Below the pieces are notes generated by a model. That model was given only the letters and a program-made list of their open reading frames with translations, made no database searches and had not been told where the DNA came from. A program made the translations under genes and the position numbers. A stretch of DNA of 64,000 nucleotides from Candidatus Poribacteria bacterium (GTDB taxonomy: Bacteria > Poribacteria > WGA-4E > PCPOR2b), in NCBI GenBank assembly GCA_965218095.1, contig OZ244587.1, forward strand, positions 1,856,001-1,920,000. Direction: 5' to 3'. Of the stretch, positions 9,438 through 36,880 are shown piece by piece (position 1 is the stretch's first letter; the number at the start of each line of letters is the position of its first letter).

Positions 9438-9514
9438 ACAAATGAGCCGCTCCGAAAGCCAGTGGGCGTGAATTTCCTTGAGTAAATTCCTTTCTGGCTT
9501 GGTTTTCTGCGTCC

Positions 9515-18188: not shown

Positions 18189-19030
18189 CTAGGTTCTGTT
18201 GACATTTGAGTATAAGGTTGTGGCATAATAGAAGAATGACGCCAATAACCTTACCTGATGAACAATGGAATAAGATATACCGGTTTCTTCTTAGCTGCCC
18301 CACCATCTATGTTGGCGACGAAGCTGCTACACGCCGCTTCGTCGAAGCGGTTCTGTGGGTGACTCGTAGTGGGGCTCAATGGAGACTTCTACCAGACACC
18401 TATGGCAAATCGAACACCCGCTACAAGCGGTTTGCTCGATGGTGCGACAAAGGTATCTTCACACAGATGCACCCCCACTTCGCCTCTGACCCCGATATCG
18501 AGTCGCTTATTGTGGACAGTACCATCTGCCGCGCTCACCCGTCTGCGGGGGGCGCCTTAAAAAGCTGGCGCCTTAAAAAAAACGGTGGCACTGAAAACCA
18601 AGCATTAGGTCGGTCTCGGGGCGGTTTCAGTACAAAAATTCACATCACCGTTGACGGACTAGGCAATCCCCTAAGAATTCATCTGACACCCGGTCAGAGA
18701 CATGACATAACTGAGGCGGAAGGGTTGATAATCGGATATAACAGTGAATATGTGATTGGAGACAAGGGGTACGATTCGGACGCTTTTATCGCCGTTATTG
18801 AGGCGAATGGAGCGATTGCGGTGATACCGCCAAAAAGTCATCGTGTTGACCAAAGAACGTATGACAAACGCTTATACAAAGAGAGACATCGGGTTGAATG
18901 TTTCATCAACAAGATAAAATGGTATCGTCGTATCTTCTCTCGGTTTGAGAAGCTAGCTGTCCGTTATTTTGGATTTCTCAGCTTTGTCTCCACTCTTATA
19001 TGGCTCCCTTGAAATGTCAACAGAACCTAA
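18189..19030 (+). mobile_element. IS5-family element, copy 2, single fused transposase ORF
   Basis: Near-identical to copy 1; same TIRs; flanks CTAG and CTAA. Confidence 0.95.
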
Positions 19031-19773: not shown

Positions 19774-20160
19774 TTGGATCGCTATGTGATCACCTCCTTT
19801 GCTGGTTGGTATATGGCGAGAAGACGGGCTGCTCATCAGCCAGCGGGCAGCCTACCCATTATATCATTTTTTTCTTGGTCTAGGATAGTTGATAAGACGG
19901 ATGACACTGCTGGAAGTCCGGAAGAGTGCCTCAAAGTCATCAAGAATTGGTTTAAAGCCCGTTGCAATGGGTGGTGGGAACATCACTGCGGATTTAGCTT
20001 AGAGACGACGGACAATCCGGGATGGTTGGCTTCCTTTGAGTTATACACGACTGAAGCTGAAGCCAACTTGATATTAGCTAATCCACTTAATCGAAACGAT
20101 GTGGATGTGAGTGTACAAAACGGGCGTCATATATTCCGAATCCTTGTCTGCGTGCCTTGA
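19774..20160 (+). CDS. Imm53-like immunity domain protein (start uncertain)
   Basis: WFKARCNGWWEHHCGFSLETTDNPGW fits the Imm53 pattern W...C(D/N)GxWEHxxG...TxDNPGW. Confidence 0.7.
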   Translation: MDRYVITSFAGWYMARRRAAHQPAGSLPIISFFSWSRIVDKTDDTAGSPEECLKVIKNWFKARCNGWWEHHCGFSLETTDNPGWLASFELYTTEAEANLILANPLNRNDVDVSVQNGRHIFRILVCVP

Positions 20161-21833: not shown

Positions 21834-23756
21834 TTAGGCATTCCGAAAATCAAGCATTGCTTGCCGATACGCCTCCGGCACCCCGATATCAAAGCGCCTC
21901 CCTTTGACGAGGTAACCAGAGAACTGATCTTCTTTCCGCAACTTATCCAGACAAGAGGTCAACTGAAACTCGCCGTGCTCGCGAAAATTATGGGTGATGT
22001 TTTCTTCCAGGTAGTCAAAGATCTGCGGCGTCAAAACATACATACCAAACACAGTGAGGAAATGATCTGCGTCCATCCCATCCACATGAAGATGCTGTCG
22101 GGCATACTCTGCATCGGGCTTTTCGTAGAACTCTGTTACTGAAAGGATCGAGTCCGGCTCCTGCCAGGCGCCGGTCACACAACCGAAGTGGTGAAGTTTA
22201 TCTACATGTGTGACCTTCAACCCGACTACGCTATGCCCGACACGATCATAGATATCCAGCAGTTGCCTTGTGCATGAAATCTCATTATCGGACGCATAGA
22301 GGTGGTCTCCCAGCATGAGCAGAAACGGTTCACCATTTACCCATTTTTGCGCACAAAAGACAGCGTGTCCGAATCCATCCTGAACGTCTTGTGTGACAAA
22401 CGAAATGCGACATCCCAAGTTCATCAGGTGCCGGCAATATTCTTGATCTTCCTTCGACAGTTTGTTGAAATTCTCGATTGCCGGCGGCGTCTTGAAGAAC
22501 TCTTCGAAGAGTTCCCGATCCCTGCTTTGCACAACAAGGCAGACCTCTTCAATTCCAGCATTGATTGCTTCTTCGACGATTGCCATAATGACGGGCTTGG
22601 GTCTACCGTCTCGGTCAATGATAGGGAAAAGCTCCTTCTTGATTGCCTTCGATGCGGGAAATAAACGAGTACCAAACCCCGCAGCCGGGATAACCGCTTT
22701 TCGCACACGCCGTCCCGCCTGAATGACCAGCTTTAAGCAAGACATCTTCAGGTCTCGCTCTATGATTTCGATGACCTTCTGCTGGCTCTCCTCATCTTTA
22801 ACGATAAATTGCGCGGAGCCATCTCCCTGCGATCCAACCCCTTTCCCGCCTAATATGTACGGCTGAATCAGCGCGTAGTTGAGGACTTTGTGAAGCACGG
22901 GGGCAGTCAACTGCAACGGACAGGCAGGTTGAAGGTGCGTATCGAATTCCGCCTGTGCCTTTTTCATCAATTCTCCAACGCTGGCTGCATCCCCTTGGTG
23001 CAACGCTTCGTGTGCTTCGTGGGTTATATTCGCACTGATTGGGCCCAGATATTTCTGGACGTTCCTTTGCATCTTGTTCTCAGCAAAGGGATAACAGTGG
23101 TTCAGTTGATTCAGTATCTCCCGCGTATCCTTACCCGCACCCAGATCGACGATAACGAAATGCAGGTCTTTCGGCACGTTGATCTCTTCGACATCGATCC
23201 GGTCCCCGTCAAAGGTCATCATGATAGGGCGACTCCCATACGCGCAGCCTTGATCCATCCGACCACAACGGGAAGGCGTAGTGATCTCGCCGATGTAGGC
23301 ATACTCCATTTCACCACGGACGGTCATTTTCAGGTCATAAACGCGGTTGAACCCGCGCGCAACAAGAACACAGATCGCCGCGCTTGATGAGAGGCCCTTC
23401 TTAACGGGAAGGTCGGTGAGGTAATTATCGATCTCCAGACCATGCACATGGTAGTGCATCAGAATTTGGTAGGCGACACCAGCGGCATAACTGAAAAAGC
23501 CCCCCTTTTCTGCTTCGGCAAGCAGCGTGTCACTTTCCATGGGCAATTCAAATGGTCCCTCGCGTGTGCCGTCACTCAGTGTGGTACGTAAAATCAGCTT
23601 GGTTGGATGAGGCTGCACTTCGGCATAAAGCCCTTGATTGGTGCCGGTGATGATTGTGTACCCTTTTTCTAAATCGGCGTTGGTACGACGATAGCCGCCG
23701 GCCCAATCGCTATGCTCACCAAAGAGACAGATACGTCCGGGCACAAAAATCCTCAT
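21834..23756 (-). CDS. GHMP (galactokinase-like) kinase fused to a GalU-like sugar-1-phosphate nucleotidyltransferase
   Basis: PGRICLFGEHSDW, PVKKGLSSSAA, GSQGDG; then KAVIPAAGFGTRLFPASK, DGFGHAV, EKP, RFDIG. Confidence 0.9.
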   Translation of the reverse strand: MRIFVPGRICLFGEHSDWAGGYRRTNADLEKGYTIITGTNQGLYAEVQPHPTKLILRTTLSDGTREGPFELPMESDTLLAEAEKGGFFSYAAGVAYQILMHYHVHGLEIDNYLTDLPVKKGLSSSAAICVLVARGFNRVYDLKMTVRGEMEYAYIGEITTPSRCGRMDQGCAYGSRPIMMTFDGDRIDVEEINVPKDLHFVIVDLGAGKDTREILNQLNHCYPFAENKMQRNVQKYLGPISANITHEAHEALHQGDAASVGELMKKAQAEFDTHLQPACPLQLTAPVLHKVLNYALIQPYILGGKGVGSQGDGSAQFIVKDEESQQKVIEIIERDLKMSCLKLVIQAGRRVRKAVIPAAGFGTRLFPASKAIKKELFPIIDRDGRPKPVIMAIVEEAINAGIEEVCLVVQSRDRELFEEFFKTPPAIENFNKLSKEDQEYCRHLMNLGCRISFVTQDVQDGFGHAVFCAQKWVNGEPFLLMLGDHLYASDNEISCTRQLLDIYDRVGHSVVGLKVTHVDKLHHFGCVTGAWQEPDSILSVTEFYEKPDAEYARQHLHVDGMDADHFLTVFGMYVLTPQIFDYLEENITHNFREHGEFQLTSCLDKLRKEDQFSGYLVKGRRFDIGVPEAYRQAMLDFRNA

Positions 23757-24001
23757 TATTTTGACTCCAACTTGTGTTATCTTCTCTAGTGTACGATAGG
23801 CTCCCTGACGAGATCTGATTTGAAAGAGATTTGAGAAAATCGATACAATCACGCAGAAATCAGGCTTCTCATGGGGAATTTCTAGAGGCTCTAAAAATCC
23901 GTGTCCTCTCTCAAAGAATATGGTATAACACCGTCATTATACGGATTGGAACACAAAATACAAGAACGAAATCCATGAAAGAAACGAAAGGAGAAAGTAC
24001 C

Positions 24002-24307
24002 ATGGCGAAGGTCGCGCTAGACCAAGTATTGGAGCAAGTGAAGATGTTGATGCTGGATGAGAAGCGTCAGTTGCGGCAAATGTTGGATGATCTATTGGAA
24101 TCATCTCCTCCAGAATCACTTGAGGAAGAGCTCGCACGAAGACTTCAAAAGGCCGGGCTAATTATCACTAGACCTCCCCCTATCACCGATTTCACGCCTT
24201 ATCAAAACCGCAAATTGGTTAAAGTTAAAGGAAAACCGGTGTCCGAGGTTCTCATTGAAGATCGTGATAAATGGCAGCATATTTCTTCGACAGCAGTGCG
24301 CTTGTGA
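24002..24307 (+). CDS. Putative antitoxin of a VapBC-type pair (3' end runs into the toxin)
   Basis: Ends in VKVKGKPVSEVLIEDR, directly upstream of a PIN gene. Confidence 0.6.
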   Translation: MAKVALDQVLEQVKMLMLDEKRQLRQMLDDLLESSPPESLEEELARRLQKAGLIITRPPPITDFTPYQNRKLVKVKGKPVSEVLIEDRDKWQHISSTAVRL

Positions 24308-24620
24308 AACGCTACATAAGTGAGATTGGTTCGGCACGGGTTATGGGCATCACAGGCCCTGCGACGGACAACTCCATCCATATTGTGCGCATTACGGGGG
24401 CAGAAGCGGGTTGGACGGAGTAGCAATATCTCTGTGACCGAAGCAACCAATGCCATTTCGGACTTTCGCCATGATTTCACCAATGGGTATCACATCGTCG
24501 AAGTTTACATCTGGGCTGATTCAGCACGCCATGACCTTAGCCGAGACACATGCCTCATGTGGTTACGATGCTGTGCAGTTAGCCGCGGCTTTGACGGATC
24601 TTATCACCAAAACCTCACCA
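24271..24620 (+). pseudogene. VapC/PIN toxin, disrupted
   Basis: MAAYFFDSSALVKRYISEIGS; later GYDAVQLAA in another frame. Confidence 0.75.
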
Positions 24621-24678
24621 GCATTGTAGATTTTTTTTGTTGTAGACCGGGGCGACGGTGGGAGTGAGGGAGGCAATT

Positions 24679-24797
24679 GTCTGAATCGCGGATTGTTGCA
24701 GATTTATGGATTTCGCGAATTAAGGCTTTCGCCGGTACAGGTTTTAATCCGCGAAATCCGCGAAATCCGCGTTATCCGTTTAATTCGCGATTCTGAT
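24679..24797. repeat. Intergenic palindromic repeat with AATCCGCG units; related half-copy near 28932
   Basis: TCTGAATCGCGGATT ... AATCCGCGAAATCCGCGAAATCCGCG ... AATTCGCGATTC; GTCTGAATCACGGATT at about 28932. Confidence 0.6.
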
Positions 24798-24820
24798 AAG
24801 GGAATACCGACAAACCACCA

Positions 24821-27800
24821 TCAAAACTGGACGCCCGCAAAGAATCCGGGCCAAACACAAATGGTTACATCGACATCGTCCGGTCGGACCACGTGGCCGA
24901 ATCCGTATCCAAAATCCGAAGTGTCCTGTCTATCTGAGACGAGGAGGTTGAGCGAAATCCCACCAAAGACACTAAACCACTTGTGCTGTTCCCAGCCGAC
25001 TGCGAAGCGTAGTTTGTTCAAGAGGCTGTGTTCATCCTCCCACCAGTCATCCCAATCCCAATCATCGGTATAAAGCACCGGGCGAATCGTGGCATCAACG
25101 TTGAGAAAAAGTCGCTTACCGAGTGGAATATGCCCACCCATACCAAACCCCCACGACCATCTGCCCAAATCGCCGTGTGGATAACTGCCGACCACGAACA
25201 GGCTATAAACGTGTCGGCTACCGAGACGAATCCCAAGGTTTGCAACCTCCGTATCGCTACCCCACAATTGCAGGTGCAGTGGATTGTCCCTAACAAAGCT
25301 GATTAATCCGATCGGGATGCCGGACATCCGTCTGGAGACGTTGAGAAGCCCTACCTGCGACGTTCCCACATGTCCAGCGATATTGAGAAGTCCAATCTGT
25401 GTCCCAATCCCACCGGGCGCAATATTGACCATGCTAATCTGTGTGCCGGCAGTCGAGATGCCCGCGTTTTGGTGCCAGCCAAGCGCGATATTGCTGATTA
25501 GGCTGAGTTGCATCCCCTCCAAATGCCCGGTAATGTTACCGCCGACTGCGGTTTGTAGACTTCGACCTTGCACATTCCCTCCGACGAAGTTCAGTCCGCC
25601 GGCTGCCTGCCAGCCGCGAAGGTCGCGGGCGACGAGATTACCCCCGACTGCGGCTTGAACTCCCCGCGCACCTCCACCGACCACATTGCCGCCTCCTACC
25701 ACTTGGAAGCCGTCAAGGTTGCCGCCGCTAACGTTGAGACCCACCGAGGCTTGGAAACCCTCCACGTTTCTGCCGGCGATGTTGGCACCGATTGCGGCTT
25801 GTAGACCGCGACTTAGCACATTCTCTCCGACGAGGTTTAGTCCGTAGGCGATCTGCAAACCCTGAAAGTTGCGCGCTGCAAAATTACCCCCGATAGCGGC
25901 TTGAATGCCTCGCACACTTCCACCGGCAGCATTGACCCCTACTGCCGCTTGAAAGCCATCAAGGTCGCCGCCGATGGCATTGAGACCACCCGAGGCTTGG
26001 AAACCCTCCACGTTTCTGCCGACAGTGTTGAACCCGGTTGAGACTTGAAAACCATCTACATTTCCACCGACGATATTGCCCACCCCAGCAAATTGCGCGC
26101 CCCGCGCTTCAAGGCCCTTCATGTTCAAAACCCCTCCCAATTCGATGCCATCAAGTTTCGTATGATAGCCCGCAATGATGTTGAGGGAAAGGTTCGTTGT
26201 GACATTGCGGTTGAGGGCACGAACTCCGACAGTGCTTATCCACGGAATCAGTGAAATCGTCACAGGCAGATGCAAATCGCTATCTTTTGCGGTTCGCGGC
26301 ACAACACCACCATCCTTCTCTAAAGGGGAGAAGGGTTCTAAGTCGCGGGTGGGTTGAGGTGGAGGAACCTGGGTAATTCGGGGGGGCAATCCCTCATTGT
26401 TGATTACCGGCGGATCAATCCCTTGGTGGTTCAGCAGTGAGATATATTTCCCGTTATAAAAAACACGGGGTGTAATCTGCTGTGGGTAGCGTAGCTCATC
26501 GGACAGGTGGGAATGCCATTCCTCGATGCCGCGTGTCACATAATCCAACAGCCCCAACACCGTGACGGTCCCATCGGGGCTCGCTGCGCCCCGGTCTTGA
26601 TAGTCACCGCTCAACCCTTTGAGCAGGAAGTAGGTGAACAGCCCATGTTTCAGTCGCGGAACTTCAGGCGCCCACTGGTTGCTATCACACGCAGTGAAGA
26701 TGATGTTACTCTCTTCACTATAACGTGACAACGCCGCAACAAAGTGCTCCTTCGGTGCTACCCGACACGCATCGACGATGACAAAACGGTGTTTCGCGTT
26801 TGCGCGATTGAGAATCGCAAACAGATTTTCGAGACTCAGTCCACTGTCCACGAGTGGATCGGTGACATCCATCGGCAGAAAGTAACCTGTTCCATCGACA
26901 TCCTCTCCATGCCCGGAGAGATAAACGGTCAGCAGATCTACCGCTTCAAGCTGAGCGTGTCGTTGGAGCTGCTCAATCACATTCGCCTTCGTCGGCTGAA
27001 TCAGGCTATCGGGTGTCATCAACGTCACATTGACGCCTGCGTCTTGGAACACCTGCGCGACCGCTTTGGCATCATCAGCGGCATACTTGAGCGACTGGAA
27101 GGGGGACGGATAGGCATCCACACCGATAACAACCGCCCAATGTCGCATATTGACACCGCTCGCAGCCCCCAGCTGGAAATTACCACCACCGGCAAGAGCC
27201 AACGCCCGCTGACTCACCTCTATCGTCTGCCCTTTTATCGTCGTGAGGGTTAATGTTTTCTCCTGCTCCACCATCAAGTCGGTAGGGAGAAACGTCTCAT
27301 CGAAGCGGTTTTCTGGGCCCTCAAGGACAGGTTGCCACGCCAGATTCCACTGTTTGTGGTCGTTCTGGACGTGCTGAACGAGTTGTCGGTACGTCAGTTT
27401 GTCGTGCCGTTGCGCCCCAATCGCCTGATTTGCAGGACTTAGCAAGTGGGAGAACATCCGCCGATAGAGGGAATAGGTCATCGCGCTGACAGGTAGATAG
27501 GTTTTGCCAATCGGGATGCGTAGTTCGTGAACGACTTGATTGTAGGCAGCAGCCGCCAGCAGTAGTGCAAAATCAGCGGATTCATCTAAGATGTCCTCCG
27601 TATGGCTTACAGTCTGGGTAGGTTGAACGTTTGCCGTTGGGGTATCCGTCACCGGCGTGCCTTTGGGTCGTCCCAGACGAATCTCTCGGAGTATATCGCC
27701 GGAGTAGCATGTGTCGATAATGCAGGAAACCTCCCGCGTCGGAAGCTCTTGGAGTAAGATGTTGAGTTCATCATCCAGCAGGTACGTCTTTGGCGATGCC

Positions 27801-28225
27801 AGATTTGCGTCCACAGGCAATAGGGCTTCGTCGTTCCTATCCGGATATCGCCCCTTCGCTTCATCGCCCGGAAAAGTTCCGAGTTTGTCAATAATCTGCG
27901 TCCCGTGTCCGCTAAAATAGAAAAGCAGGCTATCAGAAGGGGTCAGGCGTCGGCTGAGTTCTCGAAATTTACGCTGAATCTGCGCCTTATTCGGATTGGT
28001 CAGGATGTGCATCTGCGTCTGTGTGACGCCGTGCGTAGAGAGGACCGCTTCCATCAGCTTCAAGTCGTTTGGCGGAGCGTCAAGCTGCAAGTTTGGATTT
28101 GCATAGTCCCAAACACCCACCAGGATGGCGTGTTGCTCGGCGTGGGCAAACTGTGAAAACATCACGAAAAGACTAAAGACCGGAAGCACCCATCGAATCG
28201 TTGACCCCAAGCTATTTTGAGACAT
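24821..28225 (-). CDS. Exported protein: two peptidase C14 (caspase-like) domains, a GxQ/N repeat stalk (LA_2272-like) and a C-terminal outer-membrane beta-barrel
   Basis: Signal peptide ending AHA; FSGHG...IIDTCYSG and LSGHG...IVDACR dyads; about 16-aa GxQxxxGxN repeats; amphipathic strands ending GFFAGVQF. Confidence 0.88.
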   Translation of the reverse strand: MSQNSLGSTIRWVLPVFSLFVMFSQFAHAEQHAILVGVWDYANPNLQLDAPPNDLKLMEAVLSTHGVTQTQMHILTNPNKAQIQRKFRELSRRLTPSDSLLFYFSGHGTQIIDKLGTFPGDEAKGRYPDRNDEALLPVDANLASPKTYLLDDELNILLQELPTREVSCIIDTCYSGDILREIRLGRPKGTPVTDTPTANVQPTQTVSHTEDILDESADFALLLAAAAYNQVVHELRIPIGKTYLPVSAMTYSLYRRMFSHLLSPANQAIGAQRHDKLTYRQLVQHVQNDHKQWNLAWQPVLEGPENRFDETFLPTDLMVEQEKTLTLTTIKGQTIEVSQRALALAGGGNFQLGAASGVNMRHWAVVIGVDAYPSPFQSLKYAADDAKAVAQVFQDAGVNVTLMTPDSLIQPTKANVIEQLQRHAQLEAVDLLTVYLSGHGEDVDGTGYFLPMDVTDPLVDSGLSLENLFAILNRANAKHRFVIVDACRVAPKEHFVAALSRYSEESNIIFTACDSNQWAPEVPRLKHGLFTYFLLKGLSGDYQDRGAASPDGTVTVLGLLDYVTRGIEEWHSHLSDELRYPQQITPRVFYNGKYISLLNHQGIDPPVINNEGLPPRITQVPPPQPTRDLEPFSPLEKDGGVVPRTAKDSDLHLPVTISLIPWISTVGVRALNRNVTTNLSLNIIAGYHTKLDGIELGGVLNMKGLEARGAQFAGVGNIVGGNVDGFQVSTGFNTVGRNVEGFQASGGLNAIGGDLDGFQAAVGVNAAGGSVRGIQAAIGGNFAARNFQGLQIAYGLNLVGENVLSRGLQAAIGANIAGRNVEGFQASVGLNVSGGNLDGFQVVGGGNVVGGGARGVQAAVGGNLVARDLRGWQAAGGLNFVGGNVQGRSLQTAVGGNITGHLEGMQLSLISNIALGWHQNAGISTAGTQISMVNIAPGGIGTQIGLLNIAGHVGTSQVGLLNVSRRMSGIPIGLISFVRDNPLHLQLWGSDTEVANLGIRLGSRHVYSLFVVGSYPHGDLGRWSWGFGMGGHIPLGKRLFLNVDATIRPVLYTDDWDWDDWWEDEHSLLNKLRFAVGWEQHKWFSVFGGISLNLLVSDRQDTSDFGYGFGHVVRPDDVDVTICVWPGFFAGVQF

Positions 28226-28889
28226 TGTGCGCTCCTTTCGTAAAATTTTCCAGCAGTTCTAAAAAACGCCGCTGCTCGAGCGATAGCTTCTCCGCCAAGG
28301 CGTCGCGCTCAACGGTGGTAAGCGAACCCAATTTGAGTCGAGATTGGTAGAGTTCGACCAGTTTGACGTGCATCGCGAGGTCTTCGGGATGCATCTTCAA
28401 AAACGTTTCAACCGCTTCGATTGAGGCGGCGAGTTGTCCTGCGTTCGTTGGTTCGGGCACAATGAGAAACTCCAACATCCCCTCCGCTGAGAGGGGCGGG
28501 GGCCCCGTATTTTCACCGCCCTTTCGTGCGCCCCACTCTATCGACAGATTGAGCGGGGAGAAAATCGACACAGCGAACATCAAAATCACCACCGCGCCTG
28601 CCGCCGAAGGCACCCACAACGGTATCCGCATTCCAAACCACTTCCGGATGCGCGTCCAAAATGACGGTTGCTCAAGTGGCGGCACCTGTGGTGCTTTCAT
28701 CGGAAAGTGTCCAGCTCGGACGGCTGCCCCGAGGTCGTGCAGCGATTTTTCTGTCTCTTGCAAAATTGTATGTCTCCGCTCGCATGCTTCACATTTGAGA
28801 AGATGGGCGCGGATGGGTTTCGATGCGCGAGCGGACAAATCTTTATCAATGTAGTGGAGCAGTTTTTTCTGCACACGACTGCATTTCAT
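28212..28889 (-). CDS. Zinc-binding (zf-HC2/ZAS) transmembrane anti-sigma factor
   Basis: MKC...HLLKCEAC (HxxxCxxC), one TM helix, helical C-terminal domain; stop overlaps the caspase gene start. Confidence 0.85.
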   Translation of the reverse strand: MKCSRVQKKLLHYIDKDLSARASKPIRAHLLKCEACERRHTILQETEKSLHDLGAAVRAGHFPMKAPQVPPLEQPSFWTRIRKWFGMRIPLWVPSAAGAVVILMFAVSIFSPLNLSIEWGARKGGENTGPPPLSAEGMLEFLIVPEPTNAGQLAASIEAVETFLKMHPEDLAMHVKLVELYQSRLKLGSLTTVERDALAEKLSLEQRRFLELLENFTKGAHNVSK

Positions 28890-29211
28890 CGGTGTTCAAC
28901 CTCCTTTTATGATGGGCTGTGGGCTATTGTTGTCTGAATCACGGATTAAACAGATGACGCAGATGACACGGATTAAGAACCAACTCTATCGGGTGGTAGG
29001 ACGCGCTGTGTACCCCTTATGGAAGCGCATAGAAGCCGCGGGGGCTGTGTCGCCGTTTTCAAAAACCTGATTTTCCATGAGAAAGAGGCACCCCCGGAAT
29101 AATGAGCACCCCTCAAATCGATAAATCCTTTGCGCCTTTGCGTCCCCCGAAATCGGGATTAAGAAACTCGCGCCCTTGCGTTGAATGCTTGAATTTATGA
29201 TTGAAAATTGC

Positions 29212-31527
29212 TTAAAACGTCATCGTCACACCGAGATAGGGAAAGAACGGCAATTGATGGAATGCCTCCTTTTCGATGGACGCATTGGAGTTCAACTCGC
29301 GGGTGTACTCGCGTCGGTAGGAAAACTCAAGGACGTTCTTGTGGTTATAGACGTTGAACAATTCGAGGAAAACCCCCATCTGCCAACAGTTGAAGATGAA
29401 CGACTTTTTGATGCGGATGTCGAGCCGATGAAACGGGGGCACGCGCAACGAATTGACCTCGCCCAAGATGGGGACATTAGAAACCACTATCACCTCACCG
29501 TATATCGCATCCGTTTTCTGCACCTTACGCTCCTCGAAGTCGATCGTGGGCGTGTACGGATTCCCTGTCGAATAGCGCCATTTTACACCGATCTCCCATG
29601 TGGGCGACAGATTGTAACTTCCCACGAGTGTTGCCACATGCGTCTGATCGAAAGAGTAAAGGTGCATGGGGGCGTCGGGATGTTCGCGCCGCCGCGAGCG
29701 TGAATAGGCGTAACTGAGAAAGCCGAAGAACCGCTTGCCTTGACGATGCCGCAGAAGAACCTCCGCCCCCCGTGCAAACCCTTCGCCCTGATTGAGATAT
29801 TTCGACACGTTATCCGTCATGATGATTTTGTCAAGGTCTTTGTAATAGCCCGCGAATTTCAAGTGGATTGATGGCGAAATCTTCCGCTCGACTTCGAGAA
29901 CGTAGTGCGTAGCAGTACTCGATTTGACATTGGGGTTACCGATGTCGGGCAAAATGTACCGCGGTTGTGGTCCCTGATTGTATTGTCCATACAAGAGGCG
30001 AATTTCTGACCTGTCTGACACCTGAAATTGGAGACTTGCCCGTGGGCCGACCGATAGCTCGTCCGTGGAGTTCAAATAGGTGGGCCGAACCCCAAACGCG
30101 GCGGAGACGAAAGGAACGGGAGTGTATCGGGCTTGCAGATAACTTTCGAGATGCGTAAAACGTCGCGACAAGTCCAGTTTTTCCAACTTATCTTCATCTA
30201 ATTCAACACCTGCAAAGAACGAGAAATCTTCGTCAAACCTGTCAGGGTCGGAGAGGAGACTCGATACGCTCCTGACCCCGCTTGAAAAGAGGACGCCTGA
30301 CTCTAGTTGATACCTCGAATTCAATTTGTAAATCAAGTCCTCACGAAGTTGATACGTCGGCTGGTCGTCTTGAAAGAAAAAATAAGTTGCATCATCCACA
30401 CCGTGTGCGACTCGGGAGAGGTTATAAGACCGGGAGAGTGTCAAATTTGAGGTGAGTCGATCGGTGAGATGGGAGCGAAGATGAATCCCCTGAGCATTGA
30501 ACCCGTTCTTATAAGAATAGTACTCAAGTTCAGCACCTTCCTCAAACTCCGCTTCAATATTGAAGAAGTCGCTCGTGGCAAACGCATTGAAGGTTAGCTG
30601 ATGCTTCTCGCCCAGGTCATAGCTGAACTGCGCCTGATAGTCCCAAAAACGCGGGAATGCCGTATTCGGGCCCAGTTCCTCATCCGCATCCAGATTAATC
30701 AACAACGGCAGCAACAGGTCAAGATAACTCCGCCGCCCTGCAACATACCACGCGCCACGAGCCCCGATTGGCCCTTCCACCATCCCCTCGGAATAGAGCA
30801 TGTTGATATTGAACTTGCCCGCGACTCGCTCCTGATTGCCATGCCGCGAGTGGATGTCAATAACCGCCTGTGCATCCGAGCCAAATTCCGCACCGAACCC
30901 ACCGGCGTAGACGTCTATCCGCTTGATAACCTCGGTACTGATGGTGGAGACGATTCCGAAGAAATGGTATGGATAGCCTATCGGTAAGCGGTCGAAATAA
31001 AAAACGTTATCTTCCGGGGCACCGCCGCGAATGTAAAGCGAACCGTCGAAATCGTTGGCAACAATGACCCCCGGCAACGATGGCAATGCCCGCAACGCAT
31101 CGCCCGCTGTCCCTGGCATCCGCTTGATTTCAAGGCTTTGCAGACTCTCCTGACTCACTGTCGCCGGAAATCGCTCTGCCGTCACAGGCACTTCCTGCAA
31201 CAAAAGAATTCGTTCAAGGTAGATTTCGACTTCCGTGACTTCTCCCGGCTTGACGGTGGCGGTCGTCTGGTCTGCCAAGCGATAGCCTTCTGCTGAAATG
31301 CTGAACGTATACTCACCCGGCCGCAGGTTTTCAAACCGAAATTTGCCTGCCAAATTTGTCACTGTCTCTTGATTGACCTCCCGCAAGCGAACCTGCGCCG
31401 AAGTGATATGGTCACGGCTGCCTTGCCTGTAAACCGTTCCGAAAACCTCGCCCGTTTCACCTGCGAACGAAACAGGAATGACGGACAGATACAAACTTAT
31501 CGTCAATATCAACATGCGGTGTTTCAC
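29212..31527 (-). CDS. TonB-dependent receptor with N-terminal carboxypeptidase-regulatory-like domain
   Basis: Signal peptide, GEVFGTV..GKFRFENLRPGEY, plug LPGV...LYIRGG...IKRIDVYAGGF, NVYN, terminal F. Confidence 0.92.
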   Translation of the reverse strand: MKHRMLILTISLYLSVIPVSFAGETGEVFGTVYRQGSRDHITSAQVRLREVNQETVTNLAGKFRFENLRPGEYTFSISAEGYRLADQTTATVKPGEVTEVEIYLERILLLQEVPVTAERFPATVSQESLQSLEIKRMPGTAGDALRALPSLPGVIVANDFDGSLYIRGGAPEDNVFYFDRLPIGYPYHFFGIVSTISTEVIKRIDVYAGGFGAEFGSDAQAVIDIHSRHGNQERVAGKFNINMLYSEGMVEGPIGARGAWYVAGRRSYLDLLLPLLINLDADEELGPNTAFPRFWDYQAQFSYDLGEKHQLTFNAFATSDFFNIEAEFEEGAELEYYSYKNGFNAQGIHLRSHLTDRLTSNLTLSRSYNLSRVAHGVDDATYFFFQDDQPTYQLREDLIYKLNSRYQLESGVLFSSGVRSVSSLLSDPDRFDEDFSFFAGVELDEDKLEKLDLSRRFTHLESYLQARYTPVPFVSAAFGVRPTYLNSTDELSVGPRASLQFQVSDRSEIRLLYGQYNQGPQPRYILPDIGNPNVKSSTATHYVLEVERKISPSIHLKFAGYYKDLDKIIMTDNVSKYLNQGEGFARGAEVLLRHRQGKRFFGFLSYAYSRSRRREHPDAPMHLYSFDQTHVATLVGSYNLSPTWEIGVKWRYSTGNPYTPTIDFEERKVQKTDAIYGEVIVVSNVPILGEVNSLRVPPFHRLDIRIKKSFIFNCWQMGVFLELFNVYNHKNVLEFSYRREYTRELNSNASIEKEAFHQLPFFPYLGVTMTF

Positions 31528-31557
31528 TGTTGTGTCTCGCTATCTATTTCTCCTTTT

Positions 31558-31591
31558 AGAAACCGAGTTTTTTGCCAAAAACTCGGTTTCT
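31558..31591. repeat. Short intergenic palindrome (REP-like)
   Basis: AGAAACCGAGTTTTT-TGCC-AAAAACTCGGTTTCT. Confidence 0.6.
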
Positions 31592-31601
31592 GCGATATGT
31601 A

Positions 31602-32141
31602 CTAATCCCCAAAGAAATAGGACGCCAAGCATGTTGCGAGTTGTCCCCTTGCATGATGGAGACGACTTTTCACCGTCCCCTGCCGGATGCCGAGCCGTTT
31701 GGCAATCTTTTTTTCCGGGAGTTCCTCGACGTAGAATAGCCAGACCACCTGTTGATGAATAAGGGGAAGTTCCGAGATGGCGTCCCGAACGACCGTCAAC
31801 TTTTCTTGAAAGAGGACGTGTGTCTCCGGTGCGCGGGAATCTGATGGTATCTGCCCAGCCTCAAAATTTTCGTCGTCAAGGCTACCGAGTGCATGTCTGG
31901 CAGCAGTGCCTTGACGACGCGACCAGTTCCGAACCACATTTTTGGCAATCTCGTGTAGCCACGCCAGAAACGCCGCTTCGGATCTGTCCCTGACCGTCTC
32001 GCGGTTTTGGTGCGCAATCAGAGCGACTTCGTTGTTGATATCCCTCCGGTCTTCCGGTTGGCTGTGTGTGTAGTAGACGCGACACAGTTCATCAACGAAT
32101 TGTGCAATCTGGGCGTGATATTTTCCGATATCCCTTGCCAC
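31602..32141 (-). CDS. ECF-type RNA polymerase sigma-70 factor
   Basis: FLAWLHEIAKN (region 2); ELP..QQVVWL...IAKRLGIRQGTVKSRLHHAR (region 4). Confidence 0.9.
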   Translation of the reverse strand: MARDIGKYHAQIAQFVDELCRVYYTHSQPEDRRDINNEVALIAHQNRETVRDRSEAAFLAWLHEIAKNVVRNWSRRQGTAARHALGSLDDENFEAGQIPSDSRAPETHVLFQEKLTVVRDAISELPLIHQQVVWLFYVEELPEKKIAKRLGIRQGTVKSRLHHARGQLATCLASYFFGD

Positions 32142-32162
32142 AATCTCCCCCTATCCCTTTAA

Positions 32163-32188
32163 GTGTCGCAGGGGATGAAAAGGTTTAC
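32163..32188 (-). promoter_or_regulatory. Possible ECF-type autoregulatory promoter
   Basis: GTAAACCTTTT...CGACAC about 20 nt upstream of the sigma start; resembles AAC...CG ECF promoters, spacing atypical. Confidence 0.3.
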
Positions 32189-32327
32189 TAGATTTTTCAA
32201 CAATGCTATCGTTTGAGAGTGTAGGAGTTAACGGTCCGCGCAACTCATTATTCCGCAAGACATCTGTCTTCTCGTCCCCATTGAGAGCGTTAAGATTTAC
32301 CAGCCCAACCTAGACTGACACAAGTCC

Positions 32328-32435
32328 CTAGGTTCTGTTGACATTTCATTGGGTAAGGTTATTGGCATCATTCTTCTATTATGCCACAACCTTATATATG
32401 CCACAACCTTATACTCAAATGTCAACAGAACCTAG
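32328..32435 (-). mobile_element. MITE: internal deletion derivative of the resident IS5
   Basis: Both TIRs with CTAG; interior is the IS 5' end with a 17-bp tandem duplication TATGCCACAACCTTATA. Confidence 0.9.
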
Positions 32436-33012
32436 ATAATCAGGGGCATGTGAGCGTGTATTCTAGAAGACAAGGAAGTGTTCGTTGGGGTGCACAAATC
32501 GGCGAACCCTCCGTAAGTGTGCTGACGCTGTAGAACTATACGACATCGAAAATCGAGAATAAACGTGAGTTGCCTGGAGAAGTTTACAAGCTACTCCCCT
32601 CTGCTGACTTGAAAGTGTTTGAACTCCTATTTCTCGATGGACGTCGGATGCTCTTCGAGGTCGTTCCTTAGACATTAACTAGATTGTTCTTTACTGTTTC
32701 ATCAGCTTTCATTTCAAGCATCGTGTCGAATCGCAATAGGTTCAATGACCGGCAAAATTCGTTCGTAATGACAGTAAGTCCTGTGACATTGAAATCAGAA
32801 TCGGATAAACCTTTTAATTCGCCGATGGAAAACGCTAACTACGCGGTTATCATCGATGAAGCAAGCGATTGAGGAAGAACTTATCCTTGATGTCCTGCAA
32901 AATTGCACCACGTACAGGTCGTACTACAAGCTCGCCAAAACTGTTGAGGGCAACCCTGATATAATATCAAGTGGCTGTATTGGAGCAGACACCATCTTCT
33001 AGGCGGATCGAC

Positions 33013-33330
33013 ATGAACAAAACGTGCATTGTCCGATGGACTGATGAGGAACATCAACAATTGAAATAATTCCTCTCCACAGGGCAGGGCTGCTGCCTAT
33101 AAGATTAAACATGCAAACATGTAAAAATCGATGCCAGTGCGACTGGAGCAATCAACAGATACGCAAGCCTTCTCAGACCAACCCAACACTGTAGCGGGCG
33201 TGCGACAGTGATTCGTGCTCGAAGGTCTACAGGATGCTATTAACCGCAAGAAGTGCCAAACACCACACTATCCCCCCAGGCACGGGAGTTGTTTGAACAT
33301 CATGGAAATCGGACTCAGTGTGTTTAACGC
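33013..33330 (+). mobile_element. IS630-family transposase remnant, heavily deleted
   Basis: MNKTCIVRWTDEEHQQL..AYKIKHAN N-terminus and HYPPRHGSCLNIMEIGLS catalytic-region motif. Confidence 0.7.
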
Positions 33331-33404
33331 AACAAAGCCTTTCTTAACTGAACACCGTATATTTAGTTACAAAAAATTTGCTGCATCTCAGGAGAAACTG
33401 GAAC

Positions 33405-34327
33405 ATGAACCTGCAAGAGCGAATGGAATTGGCTGGGCAGTGCCTTCTTGCCTGGCTCGATCCAGAAAAGGAATTCTTACCCGTCGGCGGCTACGAAGTC
33501 GCCCATAACGTGGGACGCTGGTGGGACGCAGTCCTGCGGCTCGAAGATTTTATTGGGTTTGTGATTCCCGCCGAACTAGAGGGGGCGATGCTCAGGAATC
33601 TTCAGCGGCTGACCGACAATCCAGATGGATTGCTCATGAACCGAACCAACACCCCTAGGATTACAGACAAGGCAAAGATTAATTCGCATAACTTCCGGGA
33701 AGCATTTATGGCCTTCAATGTCCTCGTCCGTTACCGCCAGAGTGCGTGGGCTAGGCGCGGGGGCCATCACCTCCTCGAAACTATGACCGGTGTTTGTGTG
33801 ACAACGGTCATTTTGACTTTGCAAAATTGCGTTGTTGGGGCCGAGTCCCCTTCACCGATGACCCATCGCATACGGAAACGGAACGCAATGGCTAGTTCGA
33901 CGGCACAGCCACTACTGGTCGCAGCTTGGAGGCGCCTGTTTGGTTTTTCGAGACCACGGGCGATGCCCTGGCTCTTGATGTGGCCCAGCGCATCGTACGG
34001 CATCACCTGATTCATTTGACAAATACGGACGGCTCCATGCGACAAGAGATCATCCATCCCGAAAATATTGGGCACAGCCATTCTTTTCAAGGAACGCTCC
34101 GCGGACTCTTGCTGTTTGGCCTGCTAAGCGGACAGAGGAAATACGTGCAGGAAGAGATGCCCTTCTCGGGCCAGCAGTACAGCTTCAAATGGCGTGGCGA
34201 CGAGATTGTGGAAGTATATTCCCACGAAGGACCGCTGCCATTTTATCCAGCGCTGTCAGATATCCTGACCAATGCGAACAAAACGCTCCAGCGGACGAAA
34301 CCCCTCCTTCGCGCAAAGCGTCGGTGA
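33405..34327 (+). pseudogene. Hypothetical protein, frameshifted and probably internally deleted
   Basis: AGGAG RBS and MNLQERMELAG; coding-like sequence continues across frames in ORFs 33378-34010 and 33926-34327. Confidence 0.55.
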
Positions 34328-34365
34328 GGCAGGGAAGGCCACGACGCTGAGCTTTGTCGTTACGT
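34273..34365 (+). other. Integron attC-like recombination site
   Basis: GCGAAC-N5-GCTCCAGCG ... CGCTGAGC-N6-GTTACGT: R''/L''/L'/R' boxes with one unpaired base. Confidence 0.7.
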
Positions 34366-34367
34366 AT

Positions 34368-34597
34368 CACCATTTTCCGCCGTTTTCCCCGTGGAGACTC
34401 CTCACTGCCTAATCAAGCTCTTCTCTTTCTACGATGAAACCGCCTTCGACCCCTTTGGTGGTATAGGTACGGCAGCAATCGCCGCGATAGAATTGGGACG
34501 GCGGAGAATTTGCTTTGAGCAGAATCCCGACTCCGTGACAATCATTCAGGACGGCTACGCTGTACCTCGTAACTACCAATGTGGACTAGCACACTGA
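34368..34597 (+). pseudogene. C-terminal fragment of an N4/N6 DNA methyltransferase
   Basis: FPVETPHCLIKLFSF..DPFGGIGT..AAIELGRRRICFE (SAM-binding motif I). Confidence 0.7.
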
Positions 34598-34783
34598 GCA
34601 CGAATTGCTAACTTTCCACTGGCTGCGGATTTCTCAACCTTCTGCAAGATATTGGCTTTGTACTTGATTGAATGTTAGGAATGTAACTGTGACGGAGAAA
34701 ACCTCCAGTGTTCGAGGTGAGTGCATTGTAGACAAACTCAAAATCCGTCTAAAGTATCGTTGGGGCGGTATAGGGAAGCCAAC

Positions 34784-36880
34784 TCAATTTGTCATCGCTC
34801 GTGTTGCATTCATGACCGCAATCAGCGCCACGCCCATATCCGCAAACACAGCTCCCCACATCGTTGCAATCCCCACAAGACCCAGTATGATGAACACGGC
34901 TTTGATCGCAAAAGCTAGACCGATATTCTCCCAGACAATTCTGCGAGTTTTCCTGCCGACTTCTATCGCTTCGGCGACTTTTGAAGGCGCATCAGTCATG
35001 ATGACGACATCGGCAGTGTCTATTGCTGCATCGGAACCAACACCACCCATTGCGATGCCGACATCGGCTCTGGAAATGACAGGGGCATCGTTAATCCCAT
35101 CGCCGACGAAGGCAATCTTATCGCCCTTTTGTGCGTTGCCAATCAGTTCCTCGATAGCACTCACCTTATCTTCGGGGAGTAACTCGGCAAGGGTATCGTC
35201 CAAACCCAGTTTTTGGGCGATACGCTCGGCGGCGGGTTGGTTATCTCCAGTCAACATAATGGTATGTTCAACGCCAAGCCGCTTCAGGGCTTCAATCGCC
35301 TCTACCGTATCTTCCTTGATTTCGTCTGCGATGACAATATACCCCGCGTAGCGGTTATCGACAGCGAAATGAACGACGGTCCCATTGACCTTGCAAATGT
35401 CGTGGTCAATGGCGTTTTCATGCAGCAGGGCGTCATTTCCTGCTAGAATCACTCGATTTTCTACTGTTGCACAGATTCCACGTCCTGAGATTTCTTTGTA
35501 GTCTTCAACGGCAGCAGCGTTTACGTCATCATCGTATGCTTCCTGAATGGATTGGGCAATAGGGTGATTAGAATGCGATTCGACAGTTGCCGCAAGACGA
35601 AGGAGTTCTTCTTCGGTGAAACTGTTCTTCGGAACGATTTCCGTCACCCGAAACACGCCTTTTGTCAGTGTGCCGGTCTTGTCGAAAACGACAGTCTTGA
35701 CTTTGGTGAGAACGTCCAAAAAGTTGGAACCTTTGATCAAAATCCCCCGCCGGGACGCCCCACCGATGCCGCCGAAGTAACCGAGCGGAATGCTCACGAC
35801 CAGGGCACAGGGGCAGGAGATGACCAGAAGTACAAGCGCGCGATAAATCCACGTGGAGAAACTCACGCCTGCAATCAGCGGCGGAAGCAGCGCGACAGCG
35901 AGTGCGCTGAAAACGACAACGGGTGTGTAGTATCGCGCAAACGTCGTAATAAATTTCTCTGTCTCCGCCTTTTTGCTAACCGCATTGTCCACAAGATCCA
36001 AAATCTTGGCAATCGAAGATTCCGCAAACGCCTTAGTGACTTTGACCGTGAGCGTTCCCGTTTTGTTAATCGTGGCAGCTAAAACGGGTTCGCCCGCTTC
36101 TACAGTTCGCGGCACTGGTTCTCCGGTCAGTGCAGAAGTATCCACCTGCGAACTTCCTGCGATAATTTCACCGTCTAGCGGAATTCTTTCACCCGCCTTG
36201 ACCAGAATCGTATCTCCAATCCCTACTTCTTGCGGGGAGACGTTTCGCAGTTCTCCGTCAACCATTAAGTTAGCAGAGTCGGGGCGGATTTCCATTAGAG
36301 ACTTAATAGCTCTTCGTGAGCGGCTAACGGAAAGGTCTTGGAAGAACTCACCAACCTGATAAAACAGCATTACCGTGACAGCTTCAGGGAGTTCATGGAT
36401 CGCAATTGCACCGAGGGTTGCAACGGTCATCAGGAAGTTTTCATCGAACACCTTCCCACGAAAGACATTCCGTCTTGCGCTCGACAGTACGGTCCACCCG
36501 CTTAGCAGATAGGCAGGGATAAAGACGAAGTATTCGCCGAGACCGTGGAGAGTTGTGTGAAGCCTGCTGTTAAAAATCAAACCCAATAACAACAGCGTAG
36601 CAGTAACCCCAATCGGCGCGAGTTTGCGCTTTATGCTGAATGCTTTGCTTTCGTGTGTGTGGTGATGGTCGTCGCCACCTACCTGAACTATTTCAACATT
36701 AGGTTCCACCTGTTTAATGACACGACGGGCGGCTTCAATTTCATCGGTGTCAAGATATAATGTGGAGACAGCAAAGTTCAGCGAAACGTATCGGGTGCCT
36801 TCTAGTCCTTTGAGGTTTTCCTCAATCTCCGCCGCGCAGTTCGGACAGTCCAATCCTTTTAATTGGTATTTCAACATCAC
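34784..36880 (-). CDS. cadA: Cd/Zn-translocating P1B-type ATPase
   Basis: GLDCPNC HMA domain, His patch, LTGE, SCPC, FDKTGT, HP, GDGINDAP. Confidence 0.92.
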   Translation of the reverse strand: MMLKYQLKGLDCPNCAAEIEENLKGLEGTRYVSLNFAVSTLYLDTDEIEAARRVIKQVEPNVEIVQVGGDDHHHTHESKAFSIKRKLAPIGVTATLLLLGLIFNSRLHTTLHGLGEYFVFIPAYLLSGWTVLSSARRNVFRGKVFDENFLMTVATLGAIAIHELPEAVTVMLFYQVGEFFQDLSVSRSRRAIKSLMEIRPDSANLMVDGELRNVSPQEVGIGDTILVKAGERIPLDGEIIAGSSQVDTSALTGEPVPRTVEAGEPVLAATINKTGTLTVKVTKAFAESSIAKILDLVDNAVSKKAETEKFITTFARYYTPVVVFSALAVALLPPLIAGVSFSTWIYRALVLLVISCPCALVVSIPLGYFGGIGGASRRGILIKGSNFLDVLTKVKTVVFDKTGTLTKGVFRVTEIVPKNSFTEEELLRLAATVESHSNHPIAQSIQEAYDDDVNAAAVEDYKEISGRGICATVENRVILAGNDALLHENAIDHDICKVNGTVVHFAVDNRYAGYIVIADEIKEDTVEAIEALKRLGVEHTIMLTGDNQPAAERIAQKLGLDDTLAELLPEDKVSAIEELIGNAQKGDKIAFVGDGINDAPVISRADVGIAMGGVGSDAAIDTADVVIMTDAPSKVAEAIEVGRKTRRIVWENIGLAFAIKAVFIILGLVGIATMWGAVFADMGVALIAVMNATRAMTN

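Follow-up and report, generated by a model that had tools for sequence, protein, structure and literature searches.

The window analysed here, a 64,000-nucleotide stretch of a Candidatus Poribacteria genome (contig OZ244587.1, positions 1,856,001 to 1,920,000), carries on its minus strand a four-gene unit for a sigma factor of the extracytoplasmic function (ECF) type, a TonB-dependent receptor-like protein, a zinc-binding transmembrane anti-sigma factor and a secreted protein with two caspase domains. Sigma factor, anti-sigma factor and caspase protein appear as a conserved core, with the receptor as an exchangeable insert between them. For the working of this core we tentatively favour, as a possibility, that the tethered caspase protein cleaves the anti-sigma factor in trans, as a split version of Myxococcus DdvA. 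The unit is composed as follows (coordinates in the window; protein lengths in amino acids, aa).

32163..32188, minus strand: promoter motif of the ECF type, GTAAACC-N14-GACAC, placed 21 nt upstream of the sigma factor gene's GTG start
31602..32141, minus strand: ECF sigma factor P0004, 179 aa, with Sigma70_r2 and Sigma70_r4_2
29212..31527, minus strand: TonB-dependent receptor-like outer-membrane protein P0003, 771 aa, with signal peptide, CarboxypepD_reg, Plug, presumed barrel and C-terminal Phe
28890..29211, minus strand: spacer of 322 nt between receptor and anti-sigma genes, non-conserved except for an AAGGAGG ribosome-binding site
28212..28889, minus strand: zinc-binding (CHCC) transmembrane anti-sigma factor P0002, 225 aa, with zf-HC2
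28212..28225, minus strand: overlap of anti-sigma stop and caspase start, 14 nt, ATGTCTCAAAATAG, with an AAAGGAG ribosome-binding site within the 3' end of the anti-sigma gene
24821..28225, minus strand: double-caspase anchored protein P0001, 1134 aa, with two Peptidase_C14 stretches

The four genes had been described in an earlier note on this DNA as co-oriented and intact, and a scan of open reading frames (ORFs) in the window returned them head to tail, uninterrupted and at exactly these coordinates. Their conservation was assessed by a genome scan in which an alignment of 12 caspase homologues served as query; 605 stretches matched, 455 of which encode a relative, and the best 80 were kept, making up 79 loci. 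Seven of these (L001 to L007), all in metagenome-assembled genomes of Candidatus Poribacteria, have full-length caspase relatives, and together with the window they form the eight loci compared throughout. The order sigma factor, receptor, anti-sigma factor, caspase is kept in L001 to L006, which represent six other Candidatus Poribacteria species. In L007, from a seventh and more distant species, sigma factor, anti-sigma factor and caspase (45% identical) are adjacent, with no receptor between. When all 79 loci were searched by tblastn and phmmer, the anti-sigma factor was present in L001 to L007 only, the receptor in L001 to L006 only, and a clear orthologous sigma factor in L001 to L007. 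The ORFs in the flanks of L001, L005, L006 and L007 gave no match to the window outside the four genes, and in L001 and L005 the neighbouring genes stand on the opposite strand to the operon. Because gene order is kept in six other species while the flanks differ, the module is inherited as a unit, and on this comparison the four-gene arrangement is not due to chance. Joint conservation elsewhere, which the earlier note had made the test of its proposal, is thus what the comparison returned.

The anti-sigma and caspase genes overlap. The TAG stop of the former (28214-28212) runs past the ATG of the latter (28225) by 14 nt, as had been noted before, and the overlap, with a Shine-Dalgarno sequence inside the 3' end of the anti-sigma gene, is kept in eight of eight loci (L007 has a shorter TTG/TGA version). 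Upstream of the sigma factor gene, the 200 nt aligned from the eight loci are unalignable except for two boxes, GT(G/A)AACC and (A/G)ACAC, placed 14 nt apart. The strict pattern derived from them, GT[GA]AACC-N13-15-[AG]ACAC, occurs upstream of the sigma factor gene in seven of the eight loci (the window at 32188-32163, L001 to L005, and L007); L006 is one base off and matches a looser pattern only. A promoter predicted earlier for 32163-32188 thereby coincides in its coordinates with a motif conserved across species. In the window the strict pattern has no second copy, neither before the receptor, anti-sigma and caspase genes nor in the flanks. L004 has one extra strict match, on the opposite strand at 5472-5448. 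A loose match at 23349-23371 of the window falls within an opposite-strand gene and was attributed to chance. The gap between receptor and anti-sigma genes measures 45-359 nt in the other six loci, with the ribosome-binding site alone conserved, and a terminator scan flagged no terminator-like site on the coding (minus) strand within this spacer. Since no second motif copy exists in the cluster or its flanks, the four genes probably form a single self-regulated operon, driven by the sigma factor's own promoter.

The sigma factor P0004 matches the Pfam models Sigma70_r2 (24.3 bits, cut-off 24) and Sigma70_r4_2 (49.4 bits, cut-off 25.7) and the ECF model TIGR02937 (71.2 bits, cut-off 42.9), and it consists of regions 2 and 4 only within about 180 aa, as is characteristic of the ECF type; against all NCBIfam subfamily or equivalog models it scores far below the cut-offs. 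Identity to the window copy is 72-81% in L001 to L006 and 51% in L007. The identities of sigma factor, anti-sigma factor and caspase alike group the window with L001 to L005, with L006 further away and L007 furthest.

The receptor follows another pattern. The window protein and that of L006 are 68% identical and the proteins of L001 to L005 are 88-92% identical among themselves, with only 41-42% identity between the two groups. Operons otherwise 63-85% identical hold two deeply diverged receptor types in the same slot. Both types have the same architecture, CarboxypepD_reg plus Plug and no STN domain, and the slot between sigma factor and anti-sigma factor is either occupied by one of them or, in L007, empty. 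The simplest reading is that the receptor cassette was replaced in the L001 to L005 lineage, and the receptor is by these comparisons an accessory, exchangeable component outside the conserved core. The earlier note counted it as part of the unit, yet it does not belong to the core: L007 lacks it, and one clade has a 42%-identical type in its place. In P0003 the Plug domain scores 36.7 bits (cut-off 23.9), and the nearest neighbours in a language-model search are clusters of TonB-dependent receptors with the same N-terminal domains (score 0.99-1.00). STN (PF07660) was found neither in P0003 at E <= 0.01 nor in the receptors of L001 and L006 at E <= 0.001. No Pfam barrel model matched P0003 at E <= 0.01, the NCBIfam TonB models gave weak scores below their cut-offs, and a sequence search of the Protein Data Bank (PDB) returned no match.

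A receptor of this architecture raises the idea that it works outward and exports or releases the caspase domains. Oar, which also has CarboxypepD_reg and Plug, does so for the protease PopC in Myxococcus, and the receptor is here predicted to be co-transcribed with a protease. We consider such a secretory role extremely improbable: L007 keeps sigma factor, anti-sigma factor and caspase without any receptor, the caspase protein has a signal peptide and a C-terminal anchor of its own, and the receptor type is exchanged without a matching change in the caspase.

The caspase protein itself is organised into two catalytic domains, a repeat region and a terminal anchor.

27446..28138, minus strand: caspase domain 1, residues ~30-260, with dyad H107/C173, D171, and a disordered loop 175-230 containing R183-L-G-R-P-K188-G189
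26516..27148, minus strand: caspase domain 2, residues ~360-570, with dyad H439/C487 and D485, lacking a long loop after the Cys
25346..26200, minus strand: about 14 tandem 16-residue G-x-Q...N beta repeats, residues ~676-960, LA_2272-like
25542..26021, minus strand: 246-bp tandem duplication, two copies, 79% matches, corresponding to five repeat units
24824..25345, minus strand: C-terminal all-beta anchor domain, residues ~961-1134, ending GFFAGVQF

It begins with a Sec-type signal peptide ending AHA and matches Peptidase_C14 (PF00656) with 125.4 bits over two stretches. An AlphaFold2 model built on a 90-row alignment (mean pLDDT 74.5) has two caspase folds and an all-beta repeat region, with a disordered loop at 175-230 right after Cys173 and a disordered Pro-rich linker at 599-650; Foldseek matched the model to MALT1, plant metacaspase 9 and Geobacter GSU0716, each with E about 1e-5. 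In an alignment of 128 orthologues (121 proteins plus L001 to L007), H107, C173, H439, C487, D171 and D485 are present in every non-gapped sequence, and because the catalytic His and Cys and the preceding Asp are conserved throughout, both domains look catalytically competent. In metacaspases a D-x-C arrangement goes with cleavage after Arg or Lys; D171 and D485, each standing two positions ahead of its Cys, would by that rule point to a preference for basic residues here as well. The repeats have a period of 16 residues (spacing mostly 16), and a surface-repeat model for LA_2272 (NF047436) matched one stretch at 927-951 with 21.6 bits, below its cut-off of 25. Repeat number varies, the near-full-length orthologues measuring 1001 to 1145 aa. 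The extra length of the window protein over orthologues of about 1050 aa is explained by the 246-bp tandem duplication, which adds five repeat units.

A role in defence or programmed death was also weighed. As a device against phages or for suicide under stress, the module would answer an attack on the envelope, for which phages might use the receptor, by activating caspases that kill or arrest the cell, and the sigma factor would amplify the response. The defence-finding program PADLOC matched its generic 'caspase' model with E = 2.1e-34, a match that concerns the caspase domain only and extends to none of the other three proteins, and the model for EACC1-associated caspases (NF047832) scored 113.6 bits, below its cut-off of 140. 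Exchange of the receptor cassette would be expected of a surface protein under conflict, and the DdvS/DdvA pair of Myxococcus controls a defence island (PMC11506125). Set against this, no defence genes are consistently adjacent to the operon, the flanks differ between species, and cytoplasmic targets are out of reach of secreted caspases. We judge this explanation very improbable.

Further evidence comes from the anti-sigma factor. The only Pfam match in P0002 is zf-HC2 (PF13490) at residues 3-36, with 24.0 bits (cut-off 22.2). The HxxxCxxC zinc-binding type proposed for it earlier is confirmed, H29, C33 and C36 together with C3 being invariant in 29 of 29 aligned homologues. Pfam revealed no FecR or FecR_C match in P0002; with a zinc-type anti-sigma factor and a receptor devoid of STN, the earlier view that this is not a classical FecI-FecR-FecA system is borne out. 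Adjacency and family membership suggest that P0002 binds and inhibits its cognate sigma factor. In the structure model (mean pLDDT 67.5), cytoplasmic helices are followed by a transmembrane (TM) segment at about 94-110, by a linker at 111-144 that is modelled as disordered (pLDDT below 50), and by a confident three-helix bundle at 150-224. The linker region is strongly conserved, with G120, K123, P132, L133, L139, E140, F141 and P145 invariant in all 29 homologues. A conserved, unstructured and membrane-proximal segment of this kind would be typical of a docking or cleavage site. The periplasmic part (~115 aa) has no Pfam match, and when the model was compared by fold with the PDB no hit reached E <= 0.001; closest were generic three-helix bundles (spectrin repeat, MIT) at E >= 0.1. 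Leads pointing to a TPR-like fold for the periplasmic part were dropped, their score of 0.80 lying within the range of shuffled sequences. The family was matched 152 times in a single-sequence search and 158 times in a profile search; among the 120 matches listed for each, identity is at least 49% over most of the length and the sole organism name is Candidatus Poribacteria.

Linker and caspase share a short motif. In the loop after Cys173 of caspase domain 1, 126 of 126 non-gapped sequences keep R183, L184, G185, K188 and G189 (the L007 loop reads R-L-G-P-A-K-G), and the linker of the anti-sigma factor has the sequence W119-G-A-R-K123-G124. Caspase protein and anti-sigma factor each contain the pattern [LWFIVM]G..KG a single time, the former in this loop and the latter in the linker; neither the sigma factor nor the receptor contains it. 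As a background, ORFs of at least 150 aa from 72 unrelated loci contain 36 matches in 292,927 residues, which corresponds to ~0.004 expected per 34-residue linker. In caspases and metacaspases, self-processing occurs in the loop after the catalytic Cys. A copy of the caspase loop in the anti-sigma factor is what a substrate or a pseudosubstrate would be expected to look like, a resemblance that is suggestive only.

The word pseudosubstrate marks out a different reading of the same facts. The periplasmic domain and linker of the anti-sigma factor could serve as a securin-like or pseudosubstrate inhibitor, or as a chaperone, of the co-translated caspase; loss or titration of the caspase, for example as it engages its real substrate, would then free the anti-sigma factor or expose it to other proteases, and the caspase itself would not cut; the sigma factor would in this way be informed of whether the caspase is occupied. 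Translational coupling suggests matched stoichiometry, and the resemblance of the linker motif to the caspase's own loop is in keeping with this reading. In cell-surface signalling, moreover, TonB-dependent transducers shield the anti-sigma factor from proteolysis when no signal is present (PMC11637429). This reading draws on the same indirect evidence as cleavage in trans, evidence which cannot discriminate the two, and we hold it to be improbable.

Relatives of the anchor provide another line of evidence. Residues 641-1134, comprising repeats and anchor domain, were used in a HMMER search and retrieved 4382 representative proteins at E <= 0.001, 2981 of them at E <= 1e-10. In most of the 150 relatives listed of the 4382, the best-matched part is the last ~210 residues (query 286-494). 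Fifty of these 150, picked mainly for length, were scanned for the domain that occupies the head position, as follows.

Anchor relatives with an N-terminal Peptidase_C14 domain: 38 of 50
Anchor relatives with STN in the position of the caspase: 4 of 50, of which 2 also match FecR_C over the same stretch and 1 also CarbopepD_reg_2
Anchor relatives with CarbopepD_reg_2 only: 1 of 50
Anchor relatives without a Pfam match: 7 of 50

All four sequences of anchor relatives that were inspected have a signal peptide at the start and a Phe at the end. Among 10 clusters looked up, the named ones with a caspase are a 'caspase family protein' of Myxococcales/Myxococcota, and one with STN is from Rhodocytophaga aerolata. 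The earlier expectation of relatives in myxobacteria has therefore held, through caspase-plus-anchor proteins in Myxococcota and through sigma-metacaspase operons noted in 2012 (PMC3501461). Anchor and repeats gave no usable Pfam match at E <= 10 and no PDB sequence match, and a fold search with the whole caspase model was dominated by caspase matches and uninformative on the anchor. The anchor model has eight long strands across 984-1133, with block-mean pLDDT mostly above 90. An outer-membrane location of the caspase protein, which the earlier note had assumed, agrees with the signal peptide, the all-beta model of the C-terminus and the terminal Phe, from which it is predicted. A placement of the caspases on the surface, proposed in the same note, is less well in line with the evidence: by analogy with the relatives, a periplasmic position of the caspases is the likelier one. 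In cell-surface signalling, contact with the anti-sigma factor is made by STN, a domain of the periplasm. Because STN sits where the caspase sits in these relatives, the analogy argues for an N-terminal head of the anchor family that faces the periplasm and communicates with anti-sigma factors.

Carried further, the repeat and barrel module might be a general outer-membrane platform that presents a periplasmic head (STN in Bacteroidota; caspase in Myxococcota and Poribacteria) to anti-sigma factors, the caspase head being a site-1 protease acting in trans that recognises a copy of its own [LW]GxxKG activation loop in the anti-sigma linker. In this generality we regard the idea as unlikely. If true, the platform would constitute an undescribed class of protease-gated, self-amplifying envelope signalling across several phyla, with DdvA as a fused cousin.

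For the Poribacteria operon itself, cleavage in trans would proceed through the following steps. The ECF sigma factor would be held at the inner membrane by the zinc-binding (CHCC), single-pass anti-sigma factor, and the secreted caspase protein would be anchored in the outer membrane by its beta-repeat and barrel module, so that the two C14 domains hang in the periplasm. Upon an envelope cue, the caspase would cut the disordered juxtamembrane linker of the anti-sigma factor, probably after Lys123 of W-G-A-R-K-G, a sequence that would copy the L-G-R-P-K-G loop of the caspase. An intramembrane protease of the RseP type would then complete the cleavage and free the sigma factor, which would drive the sole promoter, located upstream of its own gene, and raise the level of all four products. 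The TonB-dependent receptor would be accessory and exchangeable cargo, outside the core switch. What the sequences show directly are the genes and their order, the conservation, the promoter motif, the translational coupling, intact catalytic dyads, the domain architecture and how the anchor module is distributed; we infer from them that the caspases face the periplasm and cut the anti-sigma factor, where they cut, that a second protease takes part and that the circuit feeds back on itself. The proposed cleavage of the anti-sigma ectodomain by the caspase, as suggested in the earlier note, has gained support that is indirect but comes from several independent lines, namely the coupling in eight of eight loci, the conserved disordered linker with the loop motif, the STN swap and the precedent of DdvA. 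Co-folding of caspase residues 28-600 with anti-sigma residues 111-225 from alignments gave a score of 0.00 in two runs made without controls, and counts as evidence neither way.

Several points weigh against this proposal. The shared motif is a short pattern of six residues chosen post hoc, and the L007 anti-sigma factor reads W-G-P-T-K-S, with the final Gly lost. Periplasmic orientation rests on analogy with STN-bearing relatives; the NCBI family name is 'surface repeat', which makes an autotransporter-like display of the caspases on the surface conceivable, and the anchor is 'barrel-like' by its predicted strands, closure of the barrel being only presumed. A positive-feedback protease switch would need a brake in addition. 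The anti-sigma family appears, among the matches listed, only in this Poribacteria clade, and for that reason the pairing cannot be traced to the relatives in Myxococcota. Finally, genes downstream of the anti-sigma gene are mere regulated outputs in many ECF operons, as may be the case here too.

This last point amounts to an explanation in its own right, one that we consider doubtful yet possible. Sigma factor and anti-sigma factor alone would sense a cue from envelope or environment, via the three-helix periplasmic domain, and receptor and caspase would merely be regulated products, the caspase having no share in the control of the sigma factor; in one variant, the caspase would be an envelope or surface protease that degrades sponge-matrix or periplasmic proteins, with the receptor importing the products. 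One promoter appears to drive all four genes, which by definition places caspase and receptor in the regulon, and what lies downstream in ECF operons is often an output. A large protein that combines two protease domains with some 14 repeats resembles an effector more than a dedicated signalling protease, and the receptor is part of the operon in seven of eight loci. Such a scheme leaves unexplained that the overlap of anti-sigma and caspase genes is kept in all eight loci while the receptor is dispensable and exchangeable, that a conserved disordered linker bears the caspase-loop motif, and that STN replaces the caspase in anchor relatives.

ECF signalling gated by a protease of caspase fold has a known precedent in fused form; the new element would be the separate, tethered partner. 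The novelty assumed by the earlier note is accordingly lower, since both the fused form (DdvA) and the sigma-metacaspase neighbourhood (2012) were known. DdvA of M. xanthus is a CHCC zinc anti-sigma factor with a periplasmic caspase-fold TPR-CHAT module, for which cleavage of the linker in the other subunit of the dimer, ahead of RseP, has been proposed (PMC11506125). The Poribacteria operon shares with DdvS-DdvA the ECF sigma factor, the single-pass CHCC anti-sigma factor, an extracytoplasmic His-Cys caspase-fold module, and a flexible linker from TM segment to periplasmic domain as the proposed cut site, with RseP-type follow-up cleavage proposed for DdvA (PMC11506125, PMC6061681). It differs from DdvA in that the caspase is a separate C14 protein with two domains, predicted to be anchored in the outer membrane, and not a CHAT module, and in that the anti-sigma factor is small, has a periplasmic three-helix bundle only and no fused TPR-CHAT, and is translationally coupled to the caspase gene. 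Unlike in DdvS-DdvA, no defence island is attached.

M. xanthus has five metacaspases, and Asplund-Samuelsson et al. (2012) noted that four belong to predicted operons which also encode sigma-70 factors; they saw the same in Anaeromyxobacter, Haliangium, Sorangium, Ralstonia and Fibrobacter (PMC3501461). Like these, the Poribacteria operon is predicted to combine the genes of a C14 caspase homologue and a sigma factor (PMC3501461), and the nearest named relatives of the caspase-plus-anchor protein outside Poribacteria are Myxococcales/Myxococcota. The 2012 survey reports co-occurrence only, without anti-sigma factor, anchor, promoter or mechanism, and a supplement to it lists proteins without anti-sigma annotation (PMC3501461). 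Within the searches made, only the Poribacteria clade has the double caspase and the inserted receptor.

With FecI-FecR-FecA, the operon has in common that ECF sigma factor, transmembrane anti-sigma factor, outer-membrane partner and TonB-dependent receptor are encoded together. It differs by its zf-HC2 instead of FecR anti-sigma factor and by a receptor that lacks STN, is dispensable and is exchangeable; the likely outer-membrane partner of the anti-sigma factor is here the caspase protein, and some anchor relatives carry STN instead. In the regulated proteolysis of RseA, DegS and then RseP act in sequence, and in that of RsiW, PrsW and then RasP. The scheme proposed here is analogous, in that two cuts, first at site 1 outside the membrane and then within it, would free the ECF sigma factor. 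It is distinct in that the candidate site-1 protease is a cysteine protease of caspase fold, encoded in the operon by a gene overlapping that of the anti-sigma factor, and tethered to the outer membrane. In Craspase (type III-E CRISPR), the TPR-CHAT protein Csx29 cuts Csx30, which holds an RpoE-type sigma factor (PMC10028731, PMC11506125). Control of an ECF-type sigma factor by a caspase-fold protease that cuts its inhibitor is the common principle, cleavage being a proposal in the present case; Craspase is, unlike the Poribacteria operon, cytoplasmic, RNA-guided, of the CHAT family and without a membrane or envelope component. CHAT proteins are mentioned in the genomic context of group ECF54 in a review (PMC8999054), and caspase and Peptidase_C14 go unmentioned in the main text and part of one supplement of an ECF classification paper (PMC7826278). 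A literature search, with subscription journals largely outside its scope, returned no paper on a C14 caspase as the separate envelope partner of an ECF anti-sigma factor.

Importance of the proposal lies in the following. ECF sigma factors are a very large family, and for most groups the trigger is not known. A separate, tethered caspase-fold partner of a zinc anti-sigma factor would add a new way of opening the ECF switch, and it would, if true, give a defined role to one of the numerous caspase homologues of bacteria that await characterisation. The operon would offer a simple system of two proteins in which to examine the cleavage that is to date no more than a proposal for DdvA. The widespread outer-membrane anchor module, with its thousands of relatives, has interchangeable caspase and STN heads that suggest a shared role toward anti-sigma factors, and in uncultivated sponge symbionts the operon represents a candidate route for sensing the host environment.

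Further sigma-like proteins were encountered among the 79 loci. Directly downstream of the caspase gene of L006 (13797-16688) is encoded a 963-aa protein whose N-terminus matches the ECF sigma factor (phmmer E = 9.8e-10) and whose remainder consists of WD40 repeats; these matches make it an ECF sigma factor extended by a large beta-propeller. An apparent fusion of sigma factor and anti-sigma factor in L007 (ORF 8751-9950) was rejected, as it is the anti-sigma frame extended upstream over the sigma factor gene in another frame. Beside the 72 distant caspase loci, sigma factor matches were only weak or non-adjacent. Proteins of 410-474 aa with a C-terminal sigma-70 region 4 only are encoded divergently beside a distant caspase gene in Iningainema (L014, 650-2074, minus strand) and Scytonema (L029, 8413-9645, minus strand), and similar proteins lie within ~6-9 kb in L019, L021 and L058. 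The pairing of the cyanobacterial region-4 protein with a caspase may be a separate sigma-like/caspase association.

The earlier note placed the unit inside decayed DNA, which applies to the immediate flanks only: both stretches are short and the next genes outward are intact. Upstream, 32142-34783 contains no convincing gene. At 34328-34594 lies a frame of 89 codons whose match to the N6_N4 DNA-methylase Pfam model (E = 1.2e-11) is confined to the final 60 positions, and the frames upstream of it, from 33348, have no Pfam match. Since the match covers only these C-terminal 60 model positions, the frame is probably what is left of a methyltransferase gene that was truncated or frameshifted. 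Some 190 nt upstream of the sigma factor start, two direct repeats of 17 nt stand in tandem between the arms of a perfect inverted repeat of 19 nt, CTAGGTTCTGTTGACATTT and its complement (32328-32346 and 32417-32435); the other loci have no such element upstream of the sigma factor gene. The element at 32328-32435 looks like a miniature inverted-repeat mobile element. The next gene upstream, at 34784-36880, encodes an intact 698-aa P-type ATPase. An Rfam search of the window returned no match.

On the downstream side, 23853-24820 (~1 kb) holds small ORFs only, none with a Pfam match. It is followed by an intact gene at 21834-23852 for a 672-aa GHMP-kinase/nucleotidyl-transferase, in which a GHMP-kinase/galactokinase-like N-terminal half is fused to a nucleotidyl-transferase C-terminal half; the product is presumably bifunctional, an enzyme of sugar-1-phosphate activation. 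At a distance of a few kb from the cluster, an IS4/IS5-family transposase (DUF4096 plus DDE_Tnp_1) is found near a small Imm53 immunity-protein ORF (18206-19012 and 19774-20160), which suggests mobile or polymorphic-toxin-related DNA in the neighbourhood.

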